The translations under genes and the position numbers were made by a program. From the NCBI RefSeq assembly GCF_003334315.1, contig NZ_QOWR01000007.1: DNA of 64,000 nt. One strand, given 5' to 3'. Below, in pieces: positions 13,853 to 38,923 of the stretch. The notes beneath the pieces are model-generated. The model was not told the DNA's origin. It did no database searches and was given only the letters and a program-made list of their open reading frames with translations. This stretch comes from Escherichia coli. GTDB taxonomy: Bacteria > Pseudomonadota > Gammaproteobacteria > Enterobacterales > Enterobacteriaceae. Within the stretch, counting starts at the first letter, position 1. Each line of letters starts with the position of its first letter.

Positions 13853-13909
13853 TCAATACCCTCTTTAAAAGAAGAGGGTTAGATTGCTGACAAAATGCGC
13901 TTTGTTCAT

Positions 13910-14007
13910 GCCGGATGCGGCGTGAACGCCTTATCCGGCCTACATAATCACGCAAATTCAATATATTGCAGAGATCATGTAGGCCGGATAAACGTAGTGC
14001 ATCAGGC
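13910..14007. repeat. REP/BIME element (two inverted REP units) between rnr and rlmB
   Basis: gccggatgcggcgtgaacgccttatccggcctac ... gtaggccggataaacgtagtgcatcaggc. Confidence 0.7.
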
Positions 14008-14031
14008 AAAACGTAAACAACGAGTACATTA

Positions 14032-16058: not shown

Positions 16059-16718
16059 ATGTCTGGTTTTTTCCAGCGTCTGTTTGGCAAGGATAATAAG
16101 CCAGCTATCGCTCGTGGTCCGCTGGGACTTCATCTCAATAGTGGCTTTACGCTCGACACGTTAGCGTTTCGTTTGCTGGAAGATGAATTGCTGATTGCGC
16201 TGCCGGGTGAGGAATTTACGGTAGCCGCCGTCAGCCACATCGATCTGGGCGGCGGTAGTCAGATTTTCCGCTACTACACTTCAGGCGATGAGTTTCTGCA
16301 AATCAATACCACCGGCGGCGAAGATATTGATGACATTGATGATATCAAGCTCTTTGTCTATGAAGAGAGCTACGGTATCAGTAAAGAGAGTCACTGGCGC
16401 GAGGCGATCAACGCCAAAGCGATGGGAGCAATGACCTTAAACTGGCAGGAAAAACGCTGGCAGCGATTTTTTAACAGCGAAGAACCGGGAAATATCGAAC
16501 CCGTCTACATGCTGGAAAAAGTAGAAAATCAAAACCATGCCAAATGGGAGGTCCATAATTTTACCATGGGCTACCAACGGCAAGTAACCGAAGATACTTA
16601 CGAATATTTGCTGCTAAATGGTGAGGAATCTTTTAACGATCTCGGCGAGCCAGAGTGGTTATTTTCGCGCGCGTTGGGTGTCGATATCCCGCTGACATCA
16701 CTTCATATTATTGGTTAA
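16059..16718 (+). CDS. yjfK: uncharacterised protein YjfK (DUF2491)
   Basis: 219-aa ORF in conserved cluster position. Confidence 0.8.
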   Translation: MSGFFQRLFGKDNKPAIARGPLGLHLNSGFTLDTLAFRLLEDELLIALPGEEFTVAAVSHIDLGGGSQIFRYYTSGDEFLQINTTGGEDIDDIDDIKLFVYEESYGISKESHWREAINAKAMGAMTLNWQEKRWQRFFNSEEPGNIEPVYMLEKVENQNHAKWEVHNFTMGYQRQVTEDTYEYLLLNGEESFNDLGEPEWLFSRALGVDIPLTSLHIIG

Positions 16719-16735
16719 TTACAAGGACGTTTACA

Positions 16736-17134
16736 ATGCATATACTGGATTCACTTCTTGCCTTTAGCGCCTATTTTTTTATTGGCGTGGCTATGGTGAT
16801 TATTTTTCTGTTTATCTATTCTAAAATTACACCGCACAACGAATGGCAGTTAATCAAAAACAATAATACCGCGGCGTCACTGGCGTTCAGCGGTACATTG
16901 TTGGGTTACGTTATCCCCTTATCCAGTGCGGCAATCAATGCGGTGAGTATTCCAGACTATTTCGCCTGGGGCGGGATTGCACTGGTGATTCAGTTACTCG
17001 TTTTTGCTGGTGTCAGACTTTATATGCCCGCATTAAGCGAAAAAATTATTAATCACAATACCGCAGCAGGAATGTTTATGGGAACCGCCGCGCTGGCTGG
17101 CGGTATTTTTAACGCAGCTTGTATGACATGGTAA
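16736..17134 (+). CDS. yjfL: inner-membrane protein YjfL (DUF350)
   Basis: 132 aa from internal ATG 16736 (MHILDSLLAFSAYFFIGV...), multi-TM; the longer track ORF from 16655 overlaps yjfK and was not used. Confidence 0.75.
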   Translation: MHILDSLLAFSAYFFIGVAMVIIFLFIYSKITPHNEWQLIKNNNTAASLAFSGTLLGYVIPLSSAAINAVSIPDYFAWGGIALVIQLLVFAGVRLYMPALSEKIINHNTAAGMFMGTAALAGGIFNAACMTW

Positions 17135-17143
17135 TGGACGATC

Positions 17144-17782
17144 ATGGCCAGAAAACGCAAATCAAGAAATAACAGTAAAATTGGTCACGGAGCGATTAGT
17201 CGCATTGGTAGACCGAATAATCCTTTTGAACCGCGTCGCAATCGCTACGCACAAAAATACTTAACGTTGGCGCTAATGGGCGGTGCCGCTTTTTTCGTAT
17301 TGAAAGGTTGTAGCGATAGTAGCGATGTCGATAACGACGGCGACGGAACGTTTTACGCGACAGTGCAGGATTGTATTGATGACGGTAATAATGCCGACAT
17401 TTGCGCGCGTGGCTGGAACAACGCCAAAACGGCATTTTATGCCGATGTTCCGAAGAATATGACTCAGCAGAACTGTCAGTCTAAGTACGAAAATTGCTAC
17501 TACGACAATGTTGAACAGAGTTGGATCCCGGTCGTTTCTGGATTTTTGTTAAGCCGGGTTATTCGTAAAGATCGCGATGAGCCGTTTGTTTATAACAGCG
17601 GCGGTTCCTCTTTTGCTTCGCGCCCAGTCTGGCGCAGCACTTCTGGTGATTACTCTTGGCGCTCCGGTTCTGGCAAAAAAGAGTCTTACTCTTCGGGCGG
17701 CTTTACCACCAAAAAAGCGTCTACCGTTTCTCGCGGCGGCTATGGTCGTTCTTCCAGCGCCCGTGGGCATTGGGGAGGCTAA
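17144..17782 (+). CDS. yjfM: uncharacterised protein YjfM (DUF1190)
   Basis: 212 aa, N-terminal basic region plus TM helix, Ser/Gly-rich C-terminus. Confidence 0.8.
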   Translation: MARKRKSRNNSKIGHGAISRIGRPNNPFEPRRNRYAQKYLTLALMGGAAFFVLKGCSDSSDVDNDGDGTFYATVQDCIDDGNNADICARGWNNAKTAFYADVPKNMTQQNCQSKYENCYYDNVEQSWIPVVSGFLLSRVIRKDRDEPFVYNSGGSSFASRPVWRSTSGDYSWRSGSGKKESYSSGGFTTKKASTVSRGGYGRSSSARGHWGG

Positions 17783-17784
17783 TC

Positions 17785-18948
17785 ATGCTGAGACACAACG
17801 TTCCTGTGCGACGGGATCTGGACCAGATCGCCGCTGACAACGGTTTCGACTTTCATATCATCGACAATGAAATCTATTGGGATGAGAGTCGGGCTTACCG
17901 TTTTACTCTGCGCCAGATTGAAGAGCAGATCGAAAAACCGACTGCGGAACTGCATCAGATGTGCCTTGAGGTGGTGGATCGCGCGGTAAAAGATGAAGAG
18001 ATCCTGACGCAACTGGCGATCCCGCCGTTGTACTGGGATGTGATCGCTGAAAGCTGGCGCGCCCGCGATCCTTCGCTGTATGGACGGATGGATTTTGCCT
18101 GGTGTGGCAATGCGCCGGTGAAGCTGCTGGAGTACAACGCCGATACGCCAACTTCATTGTACGAGTCGGCTTATTTCCAGTGGCTGTGGCTGGAGGATGC
18201 CCGGCGCAGCGGCATTATTCCGCGTGATGCCGATCAGTACAATGCTATTCAGGAACGCCTGATTTCACGCTTTAGCGAGCTTTACAGTCGGGAACCGTTT
18301 TATTTTTGCTGCTGTCAGGACACCGATGAAGACAGGAGTACCGTGCTGTACTTGCAGGACTGCGCCCAGCAGGCAGGGCAGGAGTCGCGGTTTATCTACA
18401 TTGAAGATCTCGGTTTGGGCGTCGGCGGCGTACTGACCGATCTTGATGATAATGTCATCCAGCGTGCATTTAAGCTGTATCCGCTGGAGTGGATGATGCG
18501 TGACGATAACGGTCCGCTGCTGCGCAAGCGTCGCGAGCAATGGGTGGAGCCGTTATGGAAAAGTATCTTGAGTAATAAAGGGCTAATGCCGCTGCTTTGG
18601 CGCTTCTTCCCTGGTCATCCTAACCTTCTTGCATCCTGGTTTGAGGGTGAAAAATCGCAGATTGCCGCTGGCGAAAGCTATGTGCGTAAACCGCTCTACT
18701 CGCGCGAAGGCGGAAATGTCACCATTTTCGACGGCCAGAATAACGTCGTTGACCACGCTGATGGTGATTACGCCGATGAACCGATGATCTACCAGGCGTT
18801 TCAACCTCTGCCGCGGTTTGGCGATAGCTACACACTCATCGGTAGCTGGATTGTCGATGATGAAGCGTGCGGAATGGGGATCCGTGAAGATAACACACTG
18901 ATCACCAAAGACACCTCACGTTTCGTTCCGCATTACATTGCTGGATAA
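17785..18948 (+). CDS. yjfC: glutathionylspermidine-synthase-like ATP-grasp protein YjfC
   Basis: 387 aa from ATG 17785 (GGGGAGG Shine-Dalgarno); starts 3 bp after the yjfM stop. Confidence 0.85.
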   Translation: MLRHNVPVRRDLDQIAADNGFDFHIIDNEIYWDESRAYRFTLRQIEEQIEKPTAELHQMCLEVVDRAVKDEEILTQLAIPPLYWDVIAESWRARDPSLYGRMDFAWCGNAPVKLLEYNADTPTSLYESAYFQWLWLEDARRSGIIPRDADQYNAIQERLISRFSELYSREPFYFCCCQDTDEDRSTVLYLQDCAQQAGQESRFIYIEDLGLGVGGVLTDLDDNVIQRAFKLYPLEWMMRDDNGPLLRKRREQWVEPLWKSILSNKGLMPLLWRFFPGHPNLLASWFEGEKSQIAAGESYVRKPLYSREGGNVTIFDGQNNVVDHADGDYADEPMIYQAFQPLPRFGDSYTLIGSWIVDDEACGMGIREDNTLITKDTSRFVPHYIAG

Positions 18949-18982
18949 GAATGTTTTAGCAATCTCTTTCTGTCATGAATCC

Positions 18983-19014
18983 ATGGCAGTGACCATACTA
19001 ATGGTGACTGCCAT
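18983..19014. promoter_or_regulatory. 14-bp imperfect inverted repeat immediately upstream of the aidB start
   Basis: atggcagtgaccat-acta-atggtgactgccat (one mismatch between arms). Confidence 0.3.
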
Positions 19015-19031
19015 TGATGGAGGGAGACACA

Positions 19032-20657
19032 GTGCACTGGCAAACTCACACCGTTTTTAATCAACCTATACCATTAAATAACAGCAACTTATACCTGTCT
19101 GATGGCGCGCTCTGCGAAGCGGTAACGCGTGAAGGTGCTGGCTGGGATAGCGATTTTCTAGCCAGTATTGGTCAGCAGTTAGGAACGGCTGAATCCCTTG
19201 AACTGGGGCGGCTGGCGAATGTGAATCCGCCTGAATTATTGCGCTACGATGCGCAAGGACGCCGTCTGGACGATGTGCGTTTTCACCCCGCCTGGCACCT
19301 GCTGATGCAGGCGCTATGTACCAATCGGGTGCACAATCTTGCCTGGGAAGAAGACGCTCGCTCCGGCGCATTTGTGGCGCGCGCGGCGCGTTTTATGTTA
19401 CATGCGCAGGTTGAGGCAGGGTCGTTATGTCCGATAACCATGACCTTTGCCGCCACGCCATTGTTGTTACAGATGTTACCCGCGCCGTTTCAGGACTGGA
19501 CCACGCCGCTATTGAGCGATCGCTACGATTCTCACTTATTGTCAGGTGGGCAAAAACGCGGTTTGTTGATTGGCATGGGAATGACGGAAAAGCAGGGCGG
19601 TTCCGATGTTATGAGCAACACCACCCGTGCAGAGCGTCTGGAAGATGGCTCTTATCGGCTGGTGGGGCATAAATGGTTTTTCTCGGTTCCGCAAAGCGAT
19701 GCGCATCTGGTGCTGGCGCAGACCGCGGGTGGCCTGTCCTGCTTTTTTGTGCCGCGCTTTTTGCCTGACGGGCAACGCAACGCGATTCGCCTCGAGCGGC
19801 TGAAAGATAAGCTGGGTAATCGCTCTAACGCCAGTTGCGAAGTGGAGTTTCAGGATGCCATTGGTTGGTTGTTGGGGCAGGAAGGGGAAGGAATTCGTCT
19901 GATCCTGAAAATGGGTGGGATGACGCGTTTTGATTGCGCCCTGGGTAGCCATGCCATGATGCGCCGTGCATTTTCGCTGGCGATTTATCATGCACATCAA
20001 CGCCATGTTTTTGGTAATCCATTGATCCAACAGCCCCTTATGCGTCATGTCTTAAGTCGCATGGCACTTCAGCTTGAAGGGCAAACGGCGTTGCTGTTTC
20101 GTCTTGCGCGAGCGTGGGACCGGCGTGCCGATGCCAAAGAAGCCCTGTGGGCGCGTTTATTTACGCCTGCGGCAAAATTTGTGATCTGCAAAAGAGGTAT
20201 GCCGTTTGTGGCCGAAGCGATGGAGGTGCTGGGCGGCATTGGTTATTGCGAGGAGAGCGAGCTGCCGCGGCTTTACCGGGAGATGCCGGTAAACAGTATT
20301 TGGGAAGGTTCCGGCAATATTATGTGCCTGGATGTGTTGCGCGTTCTCAATAAGCAAGCGGGCGTATACGACTTATTGTCGGAAGCATTTGTGGAAGTGA
20401 AAGGGCAGGATCGCTATTTTGATCGCGCGGTTCGTCGTTTACAGCAGCAGCTGCGTAAGCCAGCTGAAGAACTGGGGCGAGAGATTACTCATCAGCTATT
20501 CCTGCTGGGCTGCGGTGCGCAAATGTTGAAATATGCTTCTCCGCCAATGGCGCAGGCGTGGTGTCAGGTGATGTTAGATACGCGCGGCGGCGTACGGTTG
20601 TCAGAGCAGATCCAGAATGATTTATTGCTGCGGGCGACGGGGGGAGTGTGTGTGTAA
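19032..20657 (+). CDS. aidB: isovaleryl-CoA-dehydrogenase-like adaptive-response protein AidB
   Basis: 541 aa from GTG 19032 (VHWQTHTVFNQP...), acyl-CoA dehydrogenase fold. Confidence 0.92.
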   Translation: MHWQTHTVFNQPIPLNNSNLYLSDGALCEAVTREGAGWDSDFLASIGQQLGTAESLELGRLANVNPPELLRYDAQGRRLDDVRFHPAWHLLMQALCTNRVHNLAWEEDARSGAFVARAARFMLHAQVEAGSLCPITMTFAATPLLLQMLPAPFQDWTTPLLSDRYDSHLLSGGQKRGLLIGMGMTEKQGGSDVMSNTTRAERLEDGSYRLVGHKWFFSVPQSDAHLVLAQTAGGLSCFFVPRFLPDGQRNAIRLERLKDKLGNRSNASCEVEFQDAIGWLLGQEGEGIRLILKMGGMTRFDCALGSHAMMRRAFSLAIYHAHQRHVFGNPLIQQPLMRHVLSRMALQLEGQTALLFRLARAWDRRADAKEALWARLFTPAAKFVICKRGMPFVAEAMEVLGGIGYCEESELPRLYREMPVNSIWEGSGNIMCLDVLRVLNKQAGVYDLLSEAFVEVKGQDRYFDRAVRRLQQQLRKPAEELGREITHQLFLLGCGAQMLKYASPPMAQAWCQVMLDTRGGVRLSEQIQNDLLLRATGGVCV

Positions 20658-20714: not shown

Positions 20715-20749
20715 GTAGGCCGGACAAGGCGCTCGCGCCGCATCCGGCA
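20715..20749. repeat. REP element downstream of aidB
   Basis: gtaggccggacaaggcgctcgcgccgcatccggca. Confidence 0.65.
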
Positions 20750-21708: not shown

Positions 21709-22458
21709 ATGATTGAAATAGAATCACGCGAGCTGGCAGATATTCCCGTTCTTCATGCTTATCCTGTCGGACAAAAAGATACCCCGTTACCGTGCGCGAT
21801 TTTTTATCACGGCTTTACTTCGTCCAGTCTGGTGTATAGCTATTTTGCCGTTGCGCTGGCGCAGGCTGGTTTGCGGGTGATCATGCCGGATGCGCCCGAT
21901 CACGGTAGTCGTTTTAGTGGCGACGCAGCGCGGCGGTTAAATCAATTCTGGCAAATCTTGCTACAAAGTATGCAGGAATTCACTACTTTACGTGCGGCAA
22001 TAGCCGAAGAAAAGTGGCTGCTTGATGACCGTCTGGCAGTCGGTGGTGCGTCGATGGGCGCGATGACGGCACTGGGGATTACCGCTCGCCACCCCACGGT
22101 GAGATGTACCGCCAGCATGATGGGATCGGGCTATTTTACATCACTCGCCCGTTCACTGTTTCCACCGCTGATACCTGAAACGACAGCACAGCAGAATGAA
22201 TTCAATAACATTGTCGCGCCGCTGGCAGAGTGGGAAGCGACAAACCACCTGGAACAACTTAGTGACAGACCTCTACTGCTGTGGCATGGCCTCGACGATG
22301 ACGTTGTGCCTGCCGACGAATCACTACGTTTGCAGCAGGCCTTAAGCGAGACGGGACGGGATAAACTGCTAACCTGTTCATGGCAGCCAGGCGTGCGTCA
22401 CCGCATTACGTCTGAGGCGTTAGATGCTGCAGTGACATTTTTCCGCCAGCATCTTTAA
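21709..22458 (+). CDS. yjfP: alpha/beta-hydrolase esterase YjfP
   Basis: 249 aa, GxSxG nucleophile elbow (GGASMGAM). Confidence 0.88.
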
Positions 22459-23210: not shown

Positions 23211-23317
23211 GAGCTATTCCGATAAAATTTGATTTTTTTAGATGATATTTGAAATAGCCAGGAAATACTACGCCGGATAGCGCGAACTACTCCACGCTAT
23301 CCGGTATAAACGACAGA

Positions 23318-28457: not shown

Positions 28458-29143
28458 TGCAAAAGCTAAAACAGCAGGTATTTGAAGCCAACATGGAGCT
28501 GCCGCGCTACGGGCTGGTGACCTTTACCTGGGGCAACGTCAGCGCTATCGACCGCGAACGCGGGCTGGTGGTGATCAAGCCCAGCGGCGTTGCCTACGAA
28601 ACCATGAAAGCGGCCGATATGGTGGTGGTTGATATGAGCGGCAAGGTGGTGGAAGGGGAGTATCGCCCATCTTCCGACACTGCGACGCATCTCGAACTCT
28701 ACCGTCGTTACCCGTCGCTTGGCGGCATTGTCCATACCCACTCCACTCATGCCACCGCATGGGCGCAGGCGGGGCTGGCGATCCCGGCGTTAGGCACCAC
28801 GCACGCTGACTACTTCTTTGGTGATATCCCGTGTACGCGTGGATTAAGCGAAGAAGAGGTGCAGGGTGAGTATGAACTGAACACTGGCAAAGTGATTATC
28901 GAAACGCTGGGCAACGCCGAGCCGCTGCATACGCCGGGAATTGTGGTGTATCAGCACGGACCGTTCGCCTGGGGGAAAGATGCCCACGACGCGGTGCATA
29001 ACGCGGTAGTGATGGAAGAAGTGGCGAAAATGGCGTGGATTGCGCGCAGTATTAATCCACAACTCAATCACATCGACAGCTTCCTGATGAATAAACACTT
29101 CATGCGTAAGCACGGCCCTAACGCTTATTACGGGCAGAAGTAA
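28457..29143 (+). CDS. ulaF: L-ribulose-5-phosphate 4-epimerase
   Basis: 228 aa from ATG 28457 (TAATG overlap with ulaE stop), class II aldolase/adducin fold. Confidence 0.93.
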
Positions 29144-29200
29144 AACACGCGCTGCGGAAATTTCCTTCCTCGGGAGATAACTGGTCTAATTCCGCAGCCG

Positions 29201-29231
29201 TTTTTCAAAAAAAGCCCCCTGCGAAGGGGGC
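29201..29231 (-). terminator. intrinsic terminator of yjfY (hairpin shared with the ulaF 3' end)
   Basis: gccccctgcgaagggggc hairpin flanked by aaaaaaa on the plus strand, giving a U-run on the minus strand. Confidence 0.6.
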
Positions 29232-29271
29232 AAAGCAAACTATGGCAATGTTTCGTTGGTTATACCTGGTG

Positions 29272-29547
29272 CTAGCGATAAATATCCGCGCTGGCGTGCA
29301 TATTGCCGTTACTCCCCGGTTCCCGCATCAGAATTACGTGGTAGTACGTTGCGCCTTGCGCATCTGTTTCTTCATTTAATGCCTGACGTGCTTCGCTTTC
29401 AGTGGCGAAATTATGATTGATATAAATCACGCCTAAGCTTTGCACATCGTCCATATTTCTGGCCTGGTGGTTATTAATTTCAATGGCTGCCCATGTATTT
29501 GCACTTAGCAAAAGCACAGCCAGAAGGGCTAAAACTCGACTGAACAT
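29272..29547 (-). CDS. yjfY: small secreted protein YjfY (DUF1471)
   Basis: 91 aa from ATG 29547 with strong GGAGG Shine-Dalgarno; signal peptide. Confidence 0.75.
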   Translation of the reverse strand: MFSRVLALLAVLLLSANTWAAIEINNHQARNMDDVQSLGVIYINHNFATESEARQALNEETDAQGATYYHVILMREPGSNGNMHASADIYR

Positions 29548-29855
29548 AGATACCTCCTCGACGGCTGACTTTGTGTGCTCTCCTCTGTGATGATCTTCTG
29601 ATTTAATTTTAATCAATGATAAAGAAGTTGATGGTGACCATTTCTGATGCAGTTGTTCGAAAAAACACTGTGACGGAATGTGATGAACTTCAAATCAGCG
29701 GTTTAGAGGTTATTTGCGAAAGGGGAGATTTATTTCTGCTCCGCCCTTGAGTTTAGCGGGGTATGTCAGTACTATAACGCGTCATTTTTCAGCCGACCTT
29801 TAACACGTTCCTTGCCTCCCCGGGATTCGGCTGACCCAGACAGGAGGCTGAATAA

Positions 29856-30269
<414 letters not shown>

Positions 30270-30275
30270 TTTCTG

Positions 30276-30822
<547 letters not shown>

Positions 30823-30851
30823 TCGGTCACGGTCCATTAATACGACTTTGA

Positions 30852-31313
<462 letters not shown>

Positions 31314-31334
31314 TTCGTTATTCAACGAGACGTA

Positions 31335-31366
31335 AAAACGCCGACCAGTGGTCGGCGTTTTGCTTT
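31335..31366 (+). terminator. intrinsic terminator of the rpsF-rplI operon
   Basis: cgccgaccagtggtcggcg stem then ttttgcttt. Confidence 0.8.
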
Positions 31367-31414
31367 ATAGCGAAAGCGTTACAACTGGTAGTATAACGCT
31401 CTGATATCTATTAA

Positions 31415-32692
31415 TTAGCTTGTCGCTAACTGTACTTGCGGTTCTTCATCTTTAACTTTGATAAGCGTCCACAGCGCAATGGCGCCAATAATGTCAAAGA
31501 AAGCCAGGGCAATAAAGAACGGCGCGAAGCCGATAATGTGAACGAATGCCCCGATAAACAGGTTGAAAATCAACTGACCGCTCCACGCACAGGCTCCTGC
31601 CATACCCACTGCGGTAGCTACTTCGTCTTTTTTGAACAGATCGCCACCCAGAGTTGCTGCTACAGTAGAAAGACATTGATGCGAGAACGCGCCAATACTA
31701 ATCAGTAATACGGCAATGTAGGGATTTTCGACAATACTCACCAGGCCAATCGTCATCATAATGACGGCTGCAATAGTGAAGGTAATTCTTCGTGAGTTAA
31801 TTAAACTCACGCCGCGATCGTGGAAGAACTTCGCGACAAAACCACTGGCTAAACAGCCGAGATCGCCCAGCAGGAAAGGCAGCCAGACGAACATGGCAAT
31901 TTCTTTCAGGCTAAAATGCAGCGTTTCGACGAAGAAAATCGGCACCCAGAAGTTAATGGTTCCCCATGCCGGGTCTGCGAGAAAACGCGCGATGCCAATC
32001 CCCCAGAAATTACGTTGGCTGAGGATATGCTTGATTGACGTTTTTTCTTTCTTATCTGTTTTAAGATGCTGTTCTTGCCCTGATTCAATATAGTGGCGCT
32101 CTTCATCAGAAAGGCGTTTGGCATCTTTCGGATCTTTATAACAAAAGAACCAAAATAAAGCCGCGAGCAAAGCAAGGCTACCTGAAACAATAAACGCAAA
32201 TTGCCAGCTATGAAACATAATGCACCAGGCAATCAACGGTGGAGCAAGCATCGCGCCGAGTGAGGTGCCCATATTGAAAACACCTGTCGCCACGCCACGC
32301 TCTTTTGCCGGGAACCATGTTGATGCGGTTTTTACACCCGCCGGAATTGCCGACGCTTCGCTGAAACCCATCAGGGCGCGCATAAATGCCAGACCTGACC
32401 ACGTTCCGGTTAGTGCATGGCCCATTGTCGCCAGGCCCCAAATTGCGGCACATATCGCAAAACTTAACTTCAGACCCACGGTATCAATAAAGAAGCCCAT
32501 TACCGGTTGCCCTAATGTATAGGCCAACTGGAATGCACTGACAATCCATGAATATTGCTCTTTAGTTATTCCGGTTGTCTCCATAATCGTTGGAGCCGCA
32601 ATACCTAACGCCGTTCTGTCCAGATAATTGATTACAGTGATAAAGCATACGAGGGCAATTATATGCCACCGGTAATTCTTTATTTTATTCAT
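31415..32692 (-). CDS. MFS permease, anion:cation symporter (ACS) family (ExuT/DgoT-like organic-anion or sugar-acid transporter)
   Basis: 425 aa, about 12 TM segments; N-terminal signature NYLDRTALGIAAP typical of ACS-family MFS; own AT-rich 92-bp upstream region. Confidence 0.8.
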   Translation of the reverse strand: MNKIKNYRWHIIALVCFITVINYLDRTALGIAAPTIMETTGITKEQYSWIVSAFQLAYTLGQPVMGFFIDTVGLKLSFAICAAIWGLATMGHALTGTWSGLAFMRALMGFSEASAIPAGVKTASTWFPAKERGVATGVFNMGTSLGAMLAPPLIAWCIMFHSWQFAFIVSGSLALLAALFWFFCYKDPKDAKRLSDEERHYIESGQEQHLKTDKKEKTSIKHILSQRNFWGIGIARFLADPAWGTINFWVPIFFVETLHFSLKEIAMFVWLPFLLGDLGCLASGFVAKFFHDRGVSLINSRRITFTIAAVIMMTIGLVSIVENPYIAVLLISIGAFSHQCLSTVAATLGGDLFKKDEVATAVGMAGACAWSGQLIFNLFIGAFVHIIGFAPFFIALAFFDIIGAIALWTLIKVKDEEPQVQLATS

Positions 32693-32784
32693 GTTTAAAC
32701 CTTTTAATTATATTAATAAACCCTGGTTGTTGGTGTTTCCGTGTAATAGGTAATAAAAATCAGGTACAGAGGAAATATTGAAAA

Positions 32785-34857
32785 TTATTGTGTGTAAATT
32801 TCTCCATTTAAAAATTCTGGCCAGTTTTTTTCAAAGTAAATACCGTTAATACACGGTTGCATACGTAAAGACTTCACTTCGGTAATAAAAGAACCTTGCG
32901 AATATTTAATCGTTAATCTGTGATTTTTGTCTTCAGCCCGTTCAGAGCGAAAACGCCATTCTTCTTTTGCGCCGCGACGAGTTTGTGGGAGGCATTTGCC
33001 TTGTGGATCAATAACCATCCGCGCCCCACGACTGCCACCACCTGCGTCAATATAATGCGTCAATTGCGTTAATACCGCGGCCGAAGTCAGCGCCATATGC
33101 CGCCACATAAATAGTTCGGCAATTTCGCCTGCGTGATTGATGGTTAAACCGTGTTGTTGTACAAACTCACTTAGCAGCAGGGCGTCACGGGTGGCGTGAC
33201 GAACTTTATCGGCATGACAAATAAATCCGGCGTAATCAGACATTCGCGCCTGGATTTTTTCTTTCACCGTTACCAGCGCCATTCCGTTCTCATTTACCAG
33301 TGCCTGAGCGATAACTTCTCTGACTATATTCAGAGATGAGGCTACCAGCTGCGCGACATCACCCTCAACAGACCGCTTTTGTGTGCAACCAATAAAGCGC
33401 GCCAGACGCACGGCAATAACCTGTCCGGCATTCAGCGCCGCACCGCCTGGTCGGGTAACGCCGTGAGTTCCGGCTACTTCTCCCACCGCAAAACAACCGG
33501 GCAGGGATGTTTGTCCCCAGATATCCACTTCAATGCCGCCATTCATGTGCTGATTATTCATGGCGAACTGCAGAGGCTGCGCGGTGAGATCGTAACCGTG
33601 CATCTTATACAGCGAGATAGACAGCGGATTCATTCGTTGCAGCCGTTCGATGGGCGATGCTGCCAGAGCGTCGTTATTTTCCAGATACGCGCGAACGTCG
33701 TCGTCCAGTCGATCTAATGTGAAGGGCAAATCACCAGGCACCGCTTCAGGATTGCGATTGAAATCCATAAACACCCGACGACCATGTTGCTGCTCTTGCG
33801 CCACCGCCATATCTAACAAGCTGGAGCCAAAATCCATCACCCGAGTGGCGTGGAACGGCCACTGATAGCCTTTACGGAAAATGTTTGAAGCCAGCTCCTG
33901 GGTGGTGCGATAGTAATCCGCGAGGAAGTTATACTCGTTACCCTCAGCATCCACGGAATAGATATACGGGATCACCTGTACATAGGTGCCGGATAAATTC
34001 CACGGAAACGTGCTACGCGGCGTGCCTATACCAAACTGGCTTTCGGTCAGATTGGTTAGCGTCAGGCCTTCCTCCAGCGCCAGCCCCAGCGAGCCAAAAC
34101 ATTTGTGTGGGTACACACTGTCGCGATAAAGCTCGCCAGGCCCTCCTGTTGCCAGTACCACATTGGGCGCAGTCACAATTGCCAGCCCCCAAGGGTTATG
34201 GGCGCGATGACCGGTCGCGAGGATTGCCCCCGCAACACGGTCTTCGCCGTTTTCGTCACGCTGATGCAGCAGTTTAATCACTGTTGCACTGGTCAACACT
34301 GGAATGGCGAGGCGCTGTACTTCTTCCAACAGCACTTTCACCATTAACCTTGAGGTACGCGGCCCACACGAGGTTGCACGCCCGGCTTCGTCATGGTCGG
34401 TTTGATAACGAAGAATCGCGCCATAGCGATCTTCCGGTAATTCCAGACCAAGATATTGCAACCCGCCAAGAGTGTGCAGAGAACCTACCGCTTCGACATA
34501 AGCGGTGTCGTGATCCATCGCCCCACCGCTCGCCAGTGCCTCTGCCAGTTTGGTGAAGTTGTCGCCGTTGCCCGCGGTAGCGGCGGTAAACAGTGTCTGT
34601 TTATCGGAACCAGAACATGCCGACGTCCCCATATATAACCCGGCAGTGGCGATCAGCACATTTTGCTGGCGGCGTTTAAGTTCCACAGCTGCACGCAGCC
34701 CGGCTGCACCACTGCCGACTACCAGGGCATCTGTTTGCCAGAGTGGGTAATCAACACCGTCTACCGTGACAACCCATGCGGGCTCTGCCTGTGCAAAACC
34801 CTTTGGGAAAGTAACGTGCGTCAGCGCATCAAGGATGGTGTCATCAAGCTGACTCAT
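32785..34857 (-). CDS. FAD-dependent oxidoreductase, fumarate reductase/succinate dehydrogenase flavoprotein-like (FAD_binding_2) with extra C-terminal domain
   Basis: 690 aa; Rossmann dinucleotide motif DALVVGSGAAGLRAA; C-terminal FAD-contact motif GCFAVGEVAGTHGVTRPGGAALNAG; start overlaps upstream stop by 4 bp (ATGA). Confidence 0.8.
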   Translation of the reverse strand: MSQLDDTILDALTHVTFPKGFAQAEPAWVVTVDGVDYPLWQTDALVVGSGAAGLRAAVELKRRQQNVLIATAGLYMGTSACSGSDKQTLFTAATAGNGDNFTKLAEALASGGAMDHDTAYVEAVGSLHTLGGLQYLGLELPEDRYGAILRYQTDHDEAGRATSCGPRTSRLMVKVLLEEVQRLAIPVLTSATVIKLLHQRDENGEDRVAGAILATGHRAHNPWGLAIVTAPNVVLATGGPGELYRDSVYPHKCFGSLGLALEEGLTLTNLTESQFGIGTPRSTFPWNLSGTYVQVIPYIYSVDAEGNEYNFLADYYRTTQELASNIFRKGYQWPFHATRVMDFGSSLLDMAVAQEQQHGRRVFMDFNRNPEAVPGDLPFTLDRLDDDVRAYLENNDALAASPIERLQRMNPLSISLYKMHGYDLTAQPLQFAMNNQHMNGGIEVDIWGQTSLPGCFAVGEVAGTHGVTRPGGAALNAGQVIAVRLARFIGCTQKRSVEGDVAQLVASSLNIVREVIAQALVNENGMALVTVKEKIQARMSDYAGFICHADKVRHATRDALLLSEFVQQHGLTINHAGEIAELFMWRHMALTSAAVLTQLTHYIDAGGGSRGARMVIDPQGKCLPQTRRGAKEEWRFRSERAEDKNHRLTIKYSQGSFITEVKSLRMQPCINGIYFEKNWPEFLNGEIYTQ

Positions 34858-36395
34858 GCATCCTCCATCGGCGTAAACAGGCTACTTTCCATCAGGCGTG
34901 GATGCTTGATAATTGGACGGAAGGCCATATACGGCAGAATGTCGCGCTCAATCTCCACACTCGGTGCGATTTCAATTAATTCAACGCCTTCTGCCGTTAA
35001 CTGGAATACTGCGCGTTCAGTGATATACAACACTTCCTGACCACTTTGCTGTGCGTAGGCGGCGCTAAAAGTGATTTTTTCCACCTGGGTAACCAGTTTA
35101 GGGATTTGACCTGACTGGGCGATATGCAAGCCATCTGGCGTTACATCAATCTTGCTACCTTTGGCGTCGAACGTGCCGCAGAACACCACTTTACGGGCGT
35201 TTTGCGCAATTTCGAGAAAACCGCCGGGGCCAATGAGATTGCCATTGAGATGGGAGACGTTGACGTTACCGTACTGATCCATCTCTCCCATGCCGAGGAA
35301 GGTGATATCGATCCCTCCGCCACTGTAGAACTCAAATTGATCGAGTGATGGAATAATGGCATCGGCGTTGCGGGCACAACCAAACAGAGCATCATCAAGC
35401 ATCATGCCGTTATGTACGCCTTGCTCGACGCTCAGCCATAAACTTTGGTAAGGAACGCCTTCGCGCAGCGCTACGCCTGGAATACCGCCAGGAATACCAA
35501 AGCCAAAGTTGGTTGAAGCGCCAGCCACCAGTTCGCGTGCTGCCCGACGGGCAATCAGGCGGCGCACCGGATGACTAACCAGTTCAATAGCGTCGTTAGA
35601 ACTCAGACGGCGATGTTGACCGCTAATGGTCAGGTCGTAACCGCCAAGATAGGTTTGCGGTTGTTCGCGGTGTTCAACGATGCCATCAACCAGAATGCCC
35701 GGTAATTTGACCCGGCGTGGTTCAATCGCGCCAGCTTCCAGCACATCGCGTACCTGTACGAACACTTTGCCGCCGCTGTTGTGTGCTGCCAGCGCCATGG
35801 AATAGCTATCCATATCAATCGCTTCTTCTTCAAGGCTGACGTTGCCTCGAGGATCGGCATAAGTGCCACGCAAAATCGCGTAATCCACTTTGAAAGGGCG
35901 ATAACGAAGTTTGGTTTCACCGTCGATTTCAATCAGTTCTACCAGGTCGTCGGTAGTGCATTCATTCGACTTACCGCCGCCATTGCGTGGATCAACAAAC
36001 GATCCCAGCCCAACGTGGGTAAAAAGCCCCGGACGTCCGGCGCCGATCTCCCGTAGCAGTGCCTGAATCACGCCACCAGGAAAGCAGTAGGCTTCAATCG
36101 TGTTATTTTTTACCAGCGCCTGCATTTTGGGCGACCAGGTAAAGTGCCCGGCAATAATGCGTTTGAGCATCTCTGCGTGCGCAAAACGATTAGTGCCTTT
36201 GCAGTCGCGATCGCCAATACCCAGCGAGTGGATTAGCGTCAGGTCGCGAGGGTGTCCGGTTTGCAGGAAACGCGCTTCAATAGCAGCCAGAATATGGTCG
36301 GCTTCTACCATACCGCCGCCGTTACCGCTAATAGCAATAGTCGCACCGTCCTGAATTTGCGCCGCCAGTGCCTCGGCGGTTGTTATCTTACGCAT
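34854..36395 (-). CDS. fused alpha/beta family-I CoA-transferase (YdiF / acetate CoA-transferase type)
   Basis: 513 aa; blocks GSFVDPRNGGGKSNE, FEFYSGGGIDITFLGMGEMDQYGNVNVSHLNG and YITERAVFQLTAEGVELIEIAPSVEIERDIL parallel my recollection of E. coli YdiF; AAGGA Shine-Dalgarno. Confidence 0.85.
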   Translation of the reverse strand: MRKITTAEALAAQIQDGATIAISGNGGGMVEADHILAAIEARFLQTGHPRDLTLIHSLGIGDRDCKGTNRFAHAEMLKRIIAGHFTWSPKMQALVKNNTIEAYCFPGGVIQALLREIGAGRPGLFTHVGLGSFVDPRNGGGKSNECTTDDLVELIEIDGETKLRYRPFKVDYAILRGTYADPRGNVSLEEEAIDMDSYSMALAAHNSGGKVFVQVRDVLEAGAIEPRRVKLPGILVDGIVEHREQPQTYLGGYDLTISGQHRRLSSNDAIELVSHPVRRLIARRAARELVAGASTNFGFGIPGGIPGVALREGVPYQSLWLSVEQGVHNGMMLDDALFGCARNADAIIPSLDQFEFYSGGGIDITFLGMGEMDQYGNVNVSHLNGNLIGPGGFLEIAQNARKVVFCGTFDAKGSKIDVTPDGLHIAQSGQIPKLVTQVEKITFSAAYAQQSGQEVLYITERAVFQLTAEGVELIEIAPSVEIERDILPYMAFRPIIKHPRLMESSLFTPMEDA

Positions 36396-36404
36396 ACAAT
36401 TTCC

Positions 36405-37181
36405 TTATTGATTATGGAAGCTCACGCTACTTTTTTCGGCAAAGGCGCGCGTCGCCTGCTGGCAATCCTGAGTGGCAGACATTAATCCGGCCAGTAGCTG
36501 GTGCGGGTAATCGGCATGTTTATTTTCCAGTGCCAGAATCAGTTGCTTAATATGCGCCAGTGCCACCGGACCGCATTTTTCCAGCTGCGCTAACTGGTTC
36601 GCCATCCAGCTTTCCACCTGTTCTTTTTCTACCACTTCATCAATTAAATTCGCCGCCTGGGCTTCCTGCGCCGTCAGGCGTTTACCCAGCATCAGCATCT
36701 GGCGACCGACCACCGGACCAACCTGATTAAGCACACGTTCAATGCCCATCCAGCCAGGCACCATGCCGAGCATCACTTCCGGGTTAGAGAATTTCGCGCC
36801 GGGGCGGGCAATACGAATATCGCAGCACAAGGCCAGTTCAATACCACCGCCGATGGTATGACCGTTGAGATTCGCAACGGTTAATTGGGGTAAGTTTCGC
36901 AGGCGATTAAAAACGTCATTACCGCGTTTAATCCATTTTCTGCCCATATCTAATGGCGAATAGGCCGACCACGATTTAATATCGCCACCCGCACAAAAGA
37001 ATTTATCGCCGGTTGCCGTTAATTCGACTAATCGTAATGTGGTGTCGTTTTCAATTTCATTTAAATAATGGTCGAGAGATTCGATCATTTCTTCATTAAT
37101 AGCATGACATTTATCTTCACGGTTCAATGTCAGGCGGCAAGAAGCCGCCGCTCTGCTGAACAGAACGGGTTGGTCACTCAT
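36405..37181 (-). CDS. enoyl-CoA hydratase/isomerase (crotonase-family) protein
   Basis: 258 aa from ATG 37181 (MSDQPVLF...; AAGGA 6 nt upstream); crotonase motifs FCAGGDIK and GHTIGGGIELALCCD; the track's longer start at 37187 sits directly against the Shine-Dalgarno. Confidence 0.8.
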   Translation of the reverse strand: MSDQPVLFSRAAASCRLTLNREDKCHAINEEMIESLDHYLNEIENDTTLRLVELTATGDKFFCAGGDIKSWSAYSPLDMGRKWIKRGNDVFNRLRNLPQLTVANLNGHTIGGGIELALCCDIRIARPGAKFSNPEVMLGMVPGWMGIERVLNQVGPVVGRQMLMLGKRLTAQEAQAANLIDEVVEKEQVESWMANQLAQLEKCGPVALAHIKQLILALENKHADYPHQLLAGLMSATQDCQQATRAFAEKSSVSFHNQ

Positions 37182-37190
37182 GATCATTCC

Positions 37191-38033
37191 TTAACAATAA
37201 TGCGCGATGCGATCGACGCTAATATCCAGCGTGCTGTTAATATCTTTCTGCCACCAGTAAGGCGAGAATATTTCCAGTTCTATAGCGCCATTAAATCCGG
37301 CGTTTTCAACCAGCCGACGAATTGACGGAATATTGATGACGCCATCTCCCGGCATTCCCCGGTCATTGACCAGATCGGTGGTCGGTACTAACCAGTCGGA
37401 AACATGAAACGCGAGGATGCGTTTTCCGGCACGCAGGATCTGACTGGCGAGCTCCGGATCCCACCAGACGTGATAAACATCCACCGCCACGCCGAGGCCA
37501 AACTCACCATCGGGATCGAGTTCATCACACCAGTCCAGCGCCTGACGTAACGTGCACAGGCAAGAGCGGTCGGCAGCAGTCATCGGGTGCAGCGGCTCCA
37601 GCGCAATTGGCACGCCGACATCTTTCGAATGTGGCAGCAACTGGCGAATCCCTTGTTTTACTTGTTCCCGCGCTTCGTACAAATCTTTTGTTCCCTGCGG
37701 TAACCCGCCAACCACCTGCATATAACAGGCGGCGTTAAGCACCGCTGCGTCGTCCAGCGCCCGGCGGTTATCATCAATCGCCAGTTTGCGTTCCGCCTGT
37801 GTCGGCGCGGTGTAGTAAGTGCTACGGCACAAACCGGAAACGCTCATGTTACTGGCAGCAAGCTGGCGGGCGATTTGCTGGAGATCTTCACCCTGCAACT
37901 CCCTGCGCCAGGGGGCAATTGCGCCAATACCACGCGCGGCGCAGGCATCAATAATGGCGGGTAGAGGCGTTTTATAGCCCAGTGTTGCGGTATTGATACT
38001 GAATAAATCCGGGCGTTGTAACAGATCTCTCAT
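37191..38033 (-). CDS. sugar-phosphate isomerase/epimerase-like protein (xylose-isomerase-like TIM barrel)
   Basis: 280 aa; composition typical of AP-endonuclease-2/xylose-isomerase TIM barrels (IALEPLHP..., HVSDW...); GAGG Shine-Dalgarno. Confidence 0.75.
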   Translation of the reverse strand: MRDLLQRPDLFSINTATLGYKTPLPAIIDACAARGIGAIAPWRRELQGEDLQQIARQLAASNMSVSGLCRSTYYTAPTQAERKLAIDDNRRALDDAAVLNAACYMQVVGGLPQGTKDLYEAREQVKQGIRQLLPHSKDVGVPIALEPLHPMTAADRSCLCTLRQALDWCDELDPDGEFGLGVAVDVYHVWWDPELASQILRAGKRILAFHVSDWLVPTTDLVNDRGMPGDGVINIPSIRRLVENAGFNGAIELEIFSPYWWQKDINSTLDISVDRIAHYC

Positions 38034-38042
38034 GATTCAGCC

Positions 38043-38834
38043 TCAGAAGCGCGGCATACTTAAGCCGCCGTCGATGGCGACCGCCTGACCACAGGTGTAA
38101 ATCAGTTTACCTTCCGCCATCGCGCGGACGGTGGAAGCAATATCAGCCGGATAACCCCAACGTCCCCACGGCACCAGACCTTTGGCAATCAGTTCGTCGT
38201 AATAAGCCGTTGCCGGAATAGTCATATCGGTTTTGATGAGACCAGGGCGCACTTCATAAACGCCAATTTGTTCATTACAAAGGCGAGCAGCAAACAGACG
38301 AGCAGCGGCAGAAACGGCGGTTTTGGCAATGGTGTATTCGCCGCGATTCATCGCCAGCATGATGGCGTTGATGGAACTGACGAAAATAATCGAGCGGTGC
38401 GGCAGTTCCGCTTCCGGTTTCGGCTGTGCCAGTAAGCGCTTACTGAATGCCTGAGCAAGGAAGAACGGCGCGCGGGTGTTAATGGCAATGTTTTGATCGA
38501 AGCTGTCTGGTTCGAGGTCGAGGAGGTCACCGCGTTTTTTCACTGAAATCCCCGCGTTATTGAGCAGGCAGTCCAGACGCCCCCACTGGTTTTGTGCCGC
38601 GTCGAGCATCTCTTCATGCAAGGAGAGATCGCCGACATCGGCAGGGAAGCAAATGACTTCCACACCTTCTGCCAGACATTCCTGTTGTGTGGCATGTAAT
38701 TTTTCTACGCTGTCAGCATCGGGGCGATCGTTAATCAGCAGGTTAAATCCGCCACGAGCAAGCTCCAGCGCACAGCCCTTTCCAATACCACGAGCGGCTC
38801 CGGTAATCACGGCAACAGGACGAGTGGATTTCAT
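38043..38834 (-). CDS. short-chain dehydrogenase/reductase (SDR)
   Basis: 263 aa; cofactor motif ITGAARGIGKG, NNAG, catalytic YTIAK; first gene of the minus-strand operon. Confidence 0.85.
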   Translation of the reverse strand: MKSTRPVAVITGAARGIGKGCALELARGGFNLLINDRPDADSVEKLHATQQECLAEGVEVICFPADVGDLSLHEEMLDAAQNQWGRLDCLLNNAGISVKKRGDLLDLEPDSFDQNIAINTRAPFFLAQAFSKRLLAQPKPEAELPHRSIIFVSSINAIMLAMNRGEYTIAKTAVSAAARLFAARLCNEQIGVYEVRPGLIKTDMTIPATAYYDELIAKGLVPWGRWGYPADIASTVRAMAEGKLIYTCGQAVAIDGGLSMPRF

Positions 38835-38879
38835 ACAATAACTCTCTTTTTTGAATATTGTTTTCTAAGTGACAATTAG

Positions 38880-38923
38880 CTTGCGACGTGCCGCAAGAAA
38901 GATCAACCATCTGGTTGGTTGAT
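38880..38923. promoter_or_regulatory. candidate TetR operator(s): two palindromes in the divergent intergenic region
   Basis: cttgcg-acgtgc-cgcaag (38880-38897) and atcaacca-tctggt-tggttgat overlapping caacca-tc-tggttg (38902-38923), inside the 211-bp AT-rich gap between the operon start and the TetR start. Confidence 0.35.

Follow-up and report, generated by a model that had tools for sequence, protein, structure and literature searches.

Five intergenic sites in a stretch of the E. coli chromosome carry ordinary E. coli REPs (palindromic units) in BIME arrangements, and the absence of such units from a variable operon in the same stretch is uninformative about the origin of that operon. We estimated the probability of this reading at about 95%. 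The whole stretch analyzed, called the window here, is 64 kb long and runs from tsaE to yjfF. The gene order of its left part is tsaE-amiB-mutL-miaA-hfq-hflXKC-purA-nsrR-rnr-rlmB ... aidB ... ula ... rpsF-priB-rpsR-rplI. To the right of a variable segment follow ytfB-fklB-cycA ... ytfH-cpdB ... paeA-msrA-tamAB ... ytfQRT-yjfF. A 13-kb part (29000–42000) was 100% identical to several complete E. coli chromosomes, e.g. NZ_CP059283.1. Positions 4,405,000–4,454,122 of K-12 MG1655 aligned with 9757–64000 of the window at 97.6–98.6% identity, three indel regions excepted.

REP units and their arrangement

Nine well-formed REP units and two degenerate remnants were found, all confined to five intergenic sites. 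These were the five sites named in the original prediction, and each of its coordinate ranges contained REP units. Its limits were too narrow for the two BIME-1 elements, which extend left to about 13881 at site 1 and right to about 51905 at site 4. The features are given below; bit scores are from a covariance model of the units, except where an Rfam family is named.

Site 1 (rnr-rlmB spacer), 13881–13909, plus strand: conserved flank motif, outside the range predicted before; aligns with the flank of the site 4 BIME-1
Site 1, 13910–13943, plus strand: Y-type REP unit; 34 of 34 consensus positions; 59.3 bits; hairpin of −21.3 kcal/mol, z −5.2
Site 1, 13944–13978, plus strand: BIME-1 L linker, sequence conserved with site 4; Rfam ES036 30.6 bits, below the gathering score
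Site 1, 13956–13968, plus strand: match to the IHF consensus in the linker, ATTCAATATATTG, 1 mismatch to WATCAANNNNTTR
Site 1, 13979–14007, minus strand: REP unit of Z1 length, decayed, with a Z-type head and a Y-type tail; 42.6 bits
Site 2 (aidB/yjfN convergent spacer), 20715–20748, minus strand: lone Y-type REP unit; 57.4 bits; 3 consensus mismatches
Site 3, 46099–46127, plus strand: REP unit 3a, starting 2 nt past the ytfH stop codon; 39.5 bits
Site 3, 46140–46175, minus strand: REP unit 3b, a variant of Z2 length; 46.1 bits
Site 3, 46182–46210, plus strand: degenerate REP remnant; head GCCGGATGCG intact, tail decayed, CTAC absent; −0.5 bits alone
Site 4 (msrA 3' end/paeA (ytfL) upstream region), 51778–51806, plus strand: Z1-type REP unit; 39.9 bits
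Site 4, 51807–51841, minus strand: BIME-1 L linker; Rfam ES036 39.3 bits at 51799–51841, above the gathering score of 37.6
Site 4, 51817–51829, minus strand: match to the IHF consensus in the linker, ATTCAATATATTG, 1 mismatch to WATCAANNNNTTR
Site 4, 51842–51875, minus strand: Y-type REP unit; 52.4 bits; 4 consensus mismatches
Site 4, 51876–51905, minus strand: conserved flank motif; aligns with 13881–13909
Site 5 (ytfQ-ytfR spacer of the ytfQRT-yjfF operon), 60807–60821, plus strand: truncated REP head GCCTGATGCC, abutting the GTAG of the Y unit; single-stranded in the predicted fold
Site 5, 60822–60855, minus strand: Y-type REP unit; 57.1 bits; 2 consensus mismatches
Site 5, 60870–60906, plus strand: Z2-type REP unit, forming a BIME-2-type pair with the Y unit; 41.0 bits

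Sites 1 and 4 conform to the definition of BIME-1 in PMC3333891: a Y unit and an inverse Z1 unit joined by a long conserved L linker, in single copy. The 129-nt elements at 13880–14008 and 51777–51905 lie in inverted orientation and are 81% identical, linker and one flank included. Folded as single strands, the whole elements formed long hairpins of −48.7 kcal/mol (z −7.5) at site 1 and −38.9 kcal/mol (z −4.3) at site 4. The rnr hairpin (13861–13880) precedes the site 1 flank. The Z1 unit of site 1 alone folded weakly (−6.2 kcal/mol, z −0.6), and its orthologues in E. albertii and E. whittamii have kept the symmetric CAGG tail. At site 5, a Y and a Z2 unit are separated by a short linker of 14 nt, as in BIME-2. 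Site 3 is an atypical BIME with two units, arranged tail to tail, and a decayed third. In the earlier range for this site, the two complete units stand, while the third, at 46182–46210, is a remnant without a stable fold (z +0.47). Since several units are decayed (the Z1 unit of site 1, the third unit of site 3, the head of site 5), not every unit need be functional.

The sequences in the five ranges contained the head GCC(G/T)GATGCG and the tail ATC(C/A)GGCCTAC, and the GATGC and CTAC columns were invariant in an alignment of the nine full units. A covariance model with 11 base pairs was made from these nine units and run unfiltered over the window on both strands. The nine units scored 39.5–59.3 bits (E from 1.7e-8 to 7.5e-14). 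The next-best matches (12.9 and 11.8 bits) were the opposite strands of two palindromic units, and no unrelated position in the whole window scored above 11.6 bits (E ≥ 0.6). As the model was trained on the window's own units, three model-independent checks were added. The model itself can fairly test only whether further units are absent; for the positive identification we rely on the published consensus and on Rfam.

The 34-nt E. coli REP consensus GCCGGATGCGGCGTGAACGCCTTATCCGGCCTAC, also given as GCCGGATGCGGCGTGAACGCCTTATCCGGCCTACGA, is quoted in PMC12306157. It was identical to 13910–13943 at all 34 positions and had 2 mismatches at 60822–60855, 3 at 20715–20748, and 4 at 51842–51875. Matches in unrelated sequence of the window began at 13 mismatches, and no match with 3 or fewer mismatches occurred in 100 shuffles. 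The Rfam family naRNA4 is a curated model based on the REP325 Y-Z2 pair. It matched site 5 (60825–60903) with 67.3 bits against a gathering score of 59.5, and at a permissive threshold its extra matches were the other four sites only. The Rfam ES036 model matched the two BIME-1 linkers and nothing else in the window. In an unbiased repeat search, REP units were the sole substantial dispersed repeats. The covariance model, the published consensus, the two Rfam models, and the repeat search thus returned no sixth site in the 64-kb window. The scan with REP consensus models that had been proposed with the prediction recovered its five sites.

Rfam matches above the gathering score were also recorded for the ES239 sRNA upstream of cysQ (48188–48310, 154.5 bits) and for the RpsF leader (29792–29876, 110.1 bits), both unrelated to REPs. 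STnc450 (51662–51719, 77.2 bits, above the gathering score) is likewise unrelated to REPs; it lies upstream of paeA/ytfL and adjoins the BIME-1 of site 4.

Simpler pattern scans were too unspecific. The 10-mer head motif gave 28 hits for 13 expected, with many chance hits within genes, and a loose head/tail pattern gave 268 hits at 3 mismatches. A tighter pattern including the CTAC foot returned all nine units and one false positive (61525–61562, within ytfR). Three further candidates were rejected. The hairpin GCCGGATAGCG...CGCTATCCGG in the ulaG-ulaR spacer (23270–23311) has CTAC on the wrong side and scored 10 bits (E 1.7); this CTAC-GCCGGATAGCGCG...CGCTATCCGG structure probably represents either the terminator hairpin of ulaG or a REP in an advanced state of decay. 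At 42888–42912, after cycA, a hairpin is followed by a T-run, so it is an intrinsic terminator. The exact head 10-mer at 21885–21894, within yjfP, has no tail.

The units are imperfect palindromes of 29–37 nt with a GTAG/CTAC foot, and CTAC was invariant in all nine aligned units. Y units folded at −19 to −21 kcal/mol (z −2.8 and −5.2). Their stems contain a mismatch, with GC of the 5' arm opposite TT of the 3' arm (GATGCGGCG...CGCCTTATC). Non-complementary bases within the stem are needed for TnpA-REP binding (PMC3333891). The spacers that contain the five sites are co-directional or convergent, at gene 3' ends, and no site falls in a divergent promoter region. With site 1 as query, and with at most 40 matching pieces counted per record, the median was at least 39 places per genome in complete E. 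coli genomes.

Stable folding and placement at gene 3' ends would also be expected of generic intrinsic terminators or gene-specific regulatory hairpins that belong to no repeat family, and genuine terminators are close by, e.g. the hairpins at 13861–13880 (rnr) and 31336–31366 (rplI). However, the same 34-nt consensus recurs at unrelated loci with 0–4 mismatches, the units have a GTAG/CTAC foot and no following T-run, a curated Rfam model derived from REPs matched them, and the family occupies about 40 or more places per genome. By this sequence-family evidence, an explanation by terminators is already refuted, and we give it next to no chance. The palindromes are best read as REP units.

Conservation of the sites

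K-12 has the identical nine units at the same five sites, and no further REP units were found elsewhere in the 49.5 kb compared by sequence (NC_000913.3). The elements are canonical and already known biology. REP and BIME elements of E. coli have been under study for about 40 years. Since they are long known and K-12 holds identical units at all five sites, their finding matters little in itself.

A comparison of REP occupancy across strains had been suggested with the prediction. Each site with short flanks was searched for in 5426 complete E. coli genomes, with presence defined as at least 80% query coverage. The window version of the sites was present in 71% to 99.5% of these genomes:

Site 1: 3843 of 5426 genomes (71%)
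Site 2: 5399 of 5426 genomes (99.5%)
Site 3: 5355 of 5426 genomes (98.7%)
Site 4: 5288 of 5426 genomes (97.5%)
Site 5: 5167 of 5426 genomes (95.2%)

Site 1, in the rnr-rlmB spacer, is dimorphic, with the full BIME-1 in about 71% and a short allele in about 29% of complete E. coli genomes. In all eight genomes sampled from those below 80% coverage, 70% of the query was matched and the span was about 89 bp shorter. Two genomes with the short allele were opened, and in both a single different REP unit (GTAGGCCGGGCAAGCGTGGCGCTCCCGGC) stood directly after the rnr hairpin. E. albertii, E. whittamii, and Escherichia sp. MOD1-EC7003 also have the full BIME-1 upstream of rlmB. This element is therefore older than the species E. 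coli, and judging from these sequences the short allele is most likely the derived one. No E. coli-type REP upstream of rlmB was found in Citrobacter, Klebsiella, Enterobacter, and most other genera sampled (110 of 118 loci were without one). A few Buttiauxella and Cedecea loci had their own REP variants there.

Site 5 may vary as is known for BIME-2 elements. In strain GN04592 it has an extra Y unit and thus three full units, and it is longer by about 140 bp of GC-rich sequence; in the window, one pair and a truncated head are present. A GC-rich palindrome, cccctcgccccttcggggagagggttagggtgagggggac, lies in this extra sequence of the GN04592 ytfQ-ytfR spacer (locus positions 350–470), and we take it to resemble a boxC repeat.

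BIMEs are known as a source of intergenic polymorphism, and our cross-strain counts agree with this. They add a little descriptive detail, namely four nearly fixed sites and a dimorphic BIME-1 in the rnr-rlmB spacer.

Other differences from K-12 were also seen. In cpdB (minus strand), a 20-nt tandem duplication, cgatatcagccccttcgata, at 47342–47361 shifts the frame and splits the gene into two ORFs (47327–48196 and 46224–47309). In a related strain, cpdB is marked 'frameshifted' in RefSeq and is 20 bp longer than that of K-12, so cpdB looks like a lineage-specific pseudogene. At 49117–49120, in the cysQ/ytfJ gap, ytfI (about 1.2 kb in K-12) is missing from the window. The chpS-chpB toxin–antitoxin pair (about 0.6 kb in K-12) is also missing, and the ytfP/ppa gap contains 129 bp instead (58783–58912). 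Strain ECONIH1 has a 2.7-kb insertion between cycA and ytfE (locus coordinates 16554–19235), which encodes a DKNYY-domain protein and a hypothetical protein. This insertion is without REP and is missing from both the window and K-12.

The variable segment between rplI and ytfB

The original prediction noted that an accessory locus at 31415–39693 held no REP unit and took this as consistent with a history different from that of the REP-decorated core. We searched this locus for canonical REP units and found none. The best covariance scores there were 10.8 bits (E 1.1) and 7.4 bits (E 8.4), for two partial matches within ORFs. The best consensus match had 15 mismatches in 34 positions, which is the background level. 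No match to Rfam naRNA4 or ES036 was found in the locus, and the repeat search agreed. The locus is indeed variable and REP-free, but the segment missing in K-12 has other boundaries:

31370–39290, no strand assigned: variable segment absent from K-12, boundaries by blastn against K-12; no REP

RefSeq annotates in this segment an MFS transporter, an FAD oxidoreductase, a CoA transferase, an enoyl-CoA hydratase, a sugar-phosphate isomerase, a ketoacyl reductase, and the 5' part of a TetR gene. The segment begins 4 nt past the rplI terminator. Where the window has these 7.9 kb, K-12 has 1.08 kb with yjfZ.

The REP-free state of the locus is as predicted by chance and tight gene packing, and it is silent on the origin of the operon. 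PMC4550694 gives 355 annotated REP loci per 4.64 Mb for K-12. With this density, or with 5 sites per 64 kb as in the window, 0.63–0.65 REP sites are expected in 8.3 kb, and the probability of finding none is 0.52–0.55. When an 8.3-kb segment was placed along the window, 42% of all placements were REP-free, as were 22% of those wholly in core DNA. The genes of the operon are packed at −4 to 9 nt, the exceptions being one 92-nt AT-rich spacer and a divergent promoter region. Two REP-eligible spacers touch the locus and neither is occupied, compared with 5 occupied of 25 in the core (Fisher p = 1.0). The REP-free stretch around the locus extends over 25.3 kb (20750–46098), of which 17.0 kb are core DNA, and the first 13.9 kb of the window are core and REP-free as well. 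REP absence is uninformative here because nearly any 8-kb stretch would be equally consistent with it.

A history different from that of the core is consistent with the variability of the segment and is right in this loose sense only; the REP argument adds nothing. In E. coli, with one REP site per 13 kb or so and only certain kinds of spacer hosting them, 'no REPs inside' is unfit as evidence for the origin of an 8-kb island.

Alternatively, the lack of REPs could be a true mark of recent acquisition from a foreign source, the operon being a small 'REP desert' that host REPs have yet to colonize. In Pseudomonas, such deserts fall together with mobile elements and strain-specific genes (PMC3390384). 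The segment here varies between genomes (3105 of 5426, or 57%, have the operon), all four alternative rplI-ytfB forms examined were also without REP, and the MFS-transporter end is somewhat AT-rich (GC 0.43–0.49). Against this, the chance of no REP in 8.3 kb is about one half with only two eligible spacers, and the 17 kb of flanking core are equally REP-free. GC across the locus was 0.43–0.56 per kb, low only at the MFS-transporter end; elsewhere it was core-like (0.51–0.56). The Pseudomonas deserts used as island markers have a lower limit of 25 kb (PMC3390384), and the REP-free stretch at this locus is neither longer than density predicts nor confined to variable DNA. Remnants of the operon in K-12 argue that the locus is old in the species. 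We consider a recent foreign origin marked by missing REPs improbable and prefer chance and gene packing as the explanation.

The K-12 remnants are of two kinds. The ytfA pseudogene of K-12 corresponds to the last 403 nt of the TetR gene of the operon (39291–39693), and it overlaps ytfB exactly as in the window. K-12 also retains a 102-bp piece of the ketoacyl-reductase gene (38644–38745) with 82% identity. K-12 thus has a decayed or replaced version of the locus. At the level of sequence, this points to an operon long resident in E. coli and later lost or replaced, rather than to a recent arrival.

The rplI-ytfB interval is a multi-state variable spot. yjfZ was found in about 2513 of 5426 genomes, and the counts for the operon and yjfZ sum to more than 5426. 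Three yjfZ-type records were opened (K-12, ECONIH1, and 2017.06.04CC), and all had yjfZ without the operon. The forms in ECONIH1 and 2017.06.04CC also carried IS elements, IS200/IS605 (tnpA and insQ/tnpB) and IS5-like. The direct rplI-MFS junction (window 31314–31414) was present in only 360 of 5426 complete genomes. In both operon-bearing genomes opened from outside these 360, rplI was separated from the operon by a HipB/HipA-like toxin–antitoxin pair. The reductase and TetR genes diverge from a 211-nt spacer, and the palindrome caaccatctggttggttg within it (38895–38925) is a plausible operator for the TetR-family regulator.

Proposed roles and relation to known elements

Family membership, hairpin-forming potential, 3'-end placement, and conservation of the sites across E. 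coli, at genus level for site 1, were observed directly. Statements about the function of single sites are borrowed from other REPs. By analogy with these, the hairpins as RNA would block 3'–5' exonucleases and stabilize the upstream mRNA. Site 5 follows the gene for a periplasmic binding protein in an ABC-transporter operon, so a role in mRNA stabilization would fit there. According to PMC12306157, which cites the original study, translation of a gene can be reduced when a REP follows its stop codon within 15 nt. Only ytfH has such a REP, with a gap of 2 nt between stop and stem, and the other full units are 24–57 nt from the nearest stop codon. The REP next to ytfH may therefore reduce its translation, if it behaves like those studied elsewhere.

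BIME-1 L linkers bind IHF (PMC3333891); by analogy, the linkers of sites 1 and 4, each with a consensus match, would do so. Gyrase cleaves BIME-2 elements, with Y units preferred (PMC6379681); by analogy, the Y unit of site 5 may be a preferred gyrase site. TnpA-REP acts in trans on single-stranded REPs and needs GTAG and the stem mismatch (PMC3333891). Both are present in units of the window. The units may have been spread and reshuffled in trans by this REP-associated tyrosine transposase, which is encoded outside the window.

For the dimorphism at rnr-rlmB, a REP-anchored replacement of the whole BIME, possibly by TnpA-REP, might be proposed in place of a simple deletion. The dimorphism may also alter rnr-rlmB co-expression. 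Separately, the REP adjacent to ytfH may throttle translation. We regard these proposals as tentative and on balance doubtful. Even if true, neither would be conceptually new.

Some sites might instead be mainly genes for trans-acting small RNAs, naRNA4-like at site 5 and ES036/CssrF-like at the BIME-1 linkers. The naRNA4 match at 60825–60903 and the ES036 match at 51799–51841 both exceed the gathering thresholds. PMC4550694 reports that about 80% of E. coli REPs are transcribed and that naRNA4 derived from REP325 condenses DNA with HU. However, these Rfam models necessarily match any Y-Z2 pair or BIME-1 linker, so a match indicates the sequence family and no separate gene, and site 5 lies within an operon and would be transcribed in any case. 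We think it unlikely that small-RNA genes are the main identity of these sites, and compare them below as REP and BIME elements.

The units resemble the E. coli REPs of the Y, Z1, and Z2 types in length, in the palindrome with an internal mismatch, in the foot, in 3'-end placement, and in consensus, and the K-12 units are identical. They differ from typical E. coli REPs only by decay, seen in the hybrid Z1 unit of site 1 and in the remnants at 46182–46210 and 60807–60821. With BIME-1 (the RIP/RIB or IHF-binding BIME), sites 1 and 4 share the Y and inverse Z1 units, the L linker of about 35 nt, the IHF-consensus match, and the flank. The difference is that a single variant REP unit stands at site 1 instead in 29% of complete E. 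coli genomes. Site 5 is like BIME-2 and REP325/naRNA4 in its Y-Z2 pair, its 14-nt linker, and its naRNA4 score above the gathering score, but it is a single pair with a truncated head, and BIME-2 arrays are tandem. The REP deserts of the Pseudomonas fluorescens group follow the same logic as the original prediction, that of variable DNA without host REPs. Those deserts have a 25-kb limit, whereas the locus described here measures 8 kb, and the 25-kb REP-free stretch around it consists mostly of core DNA.
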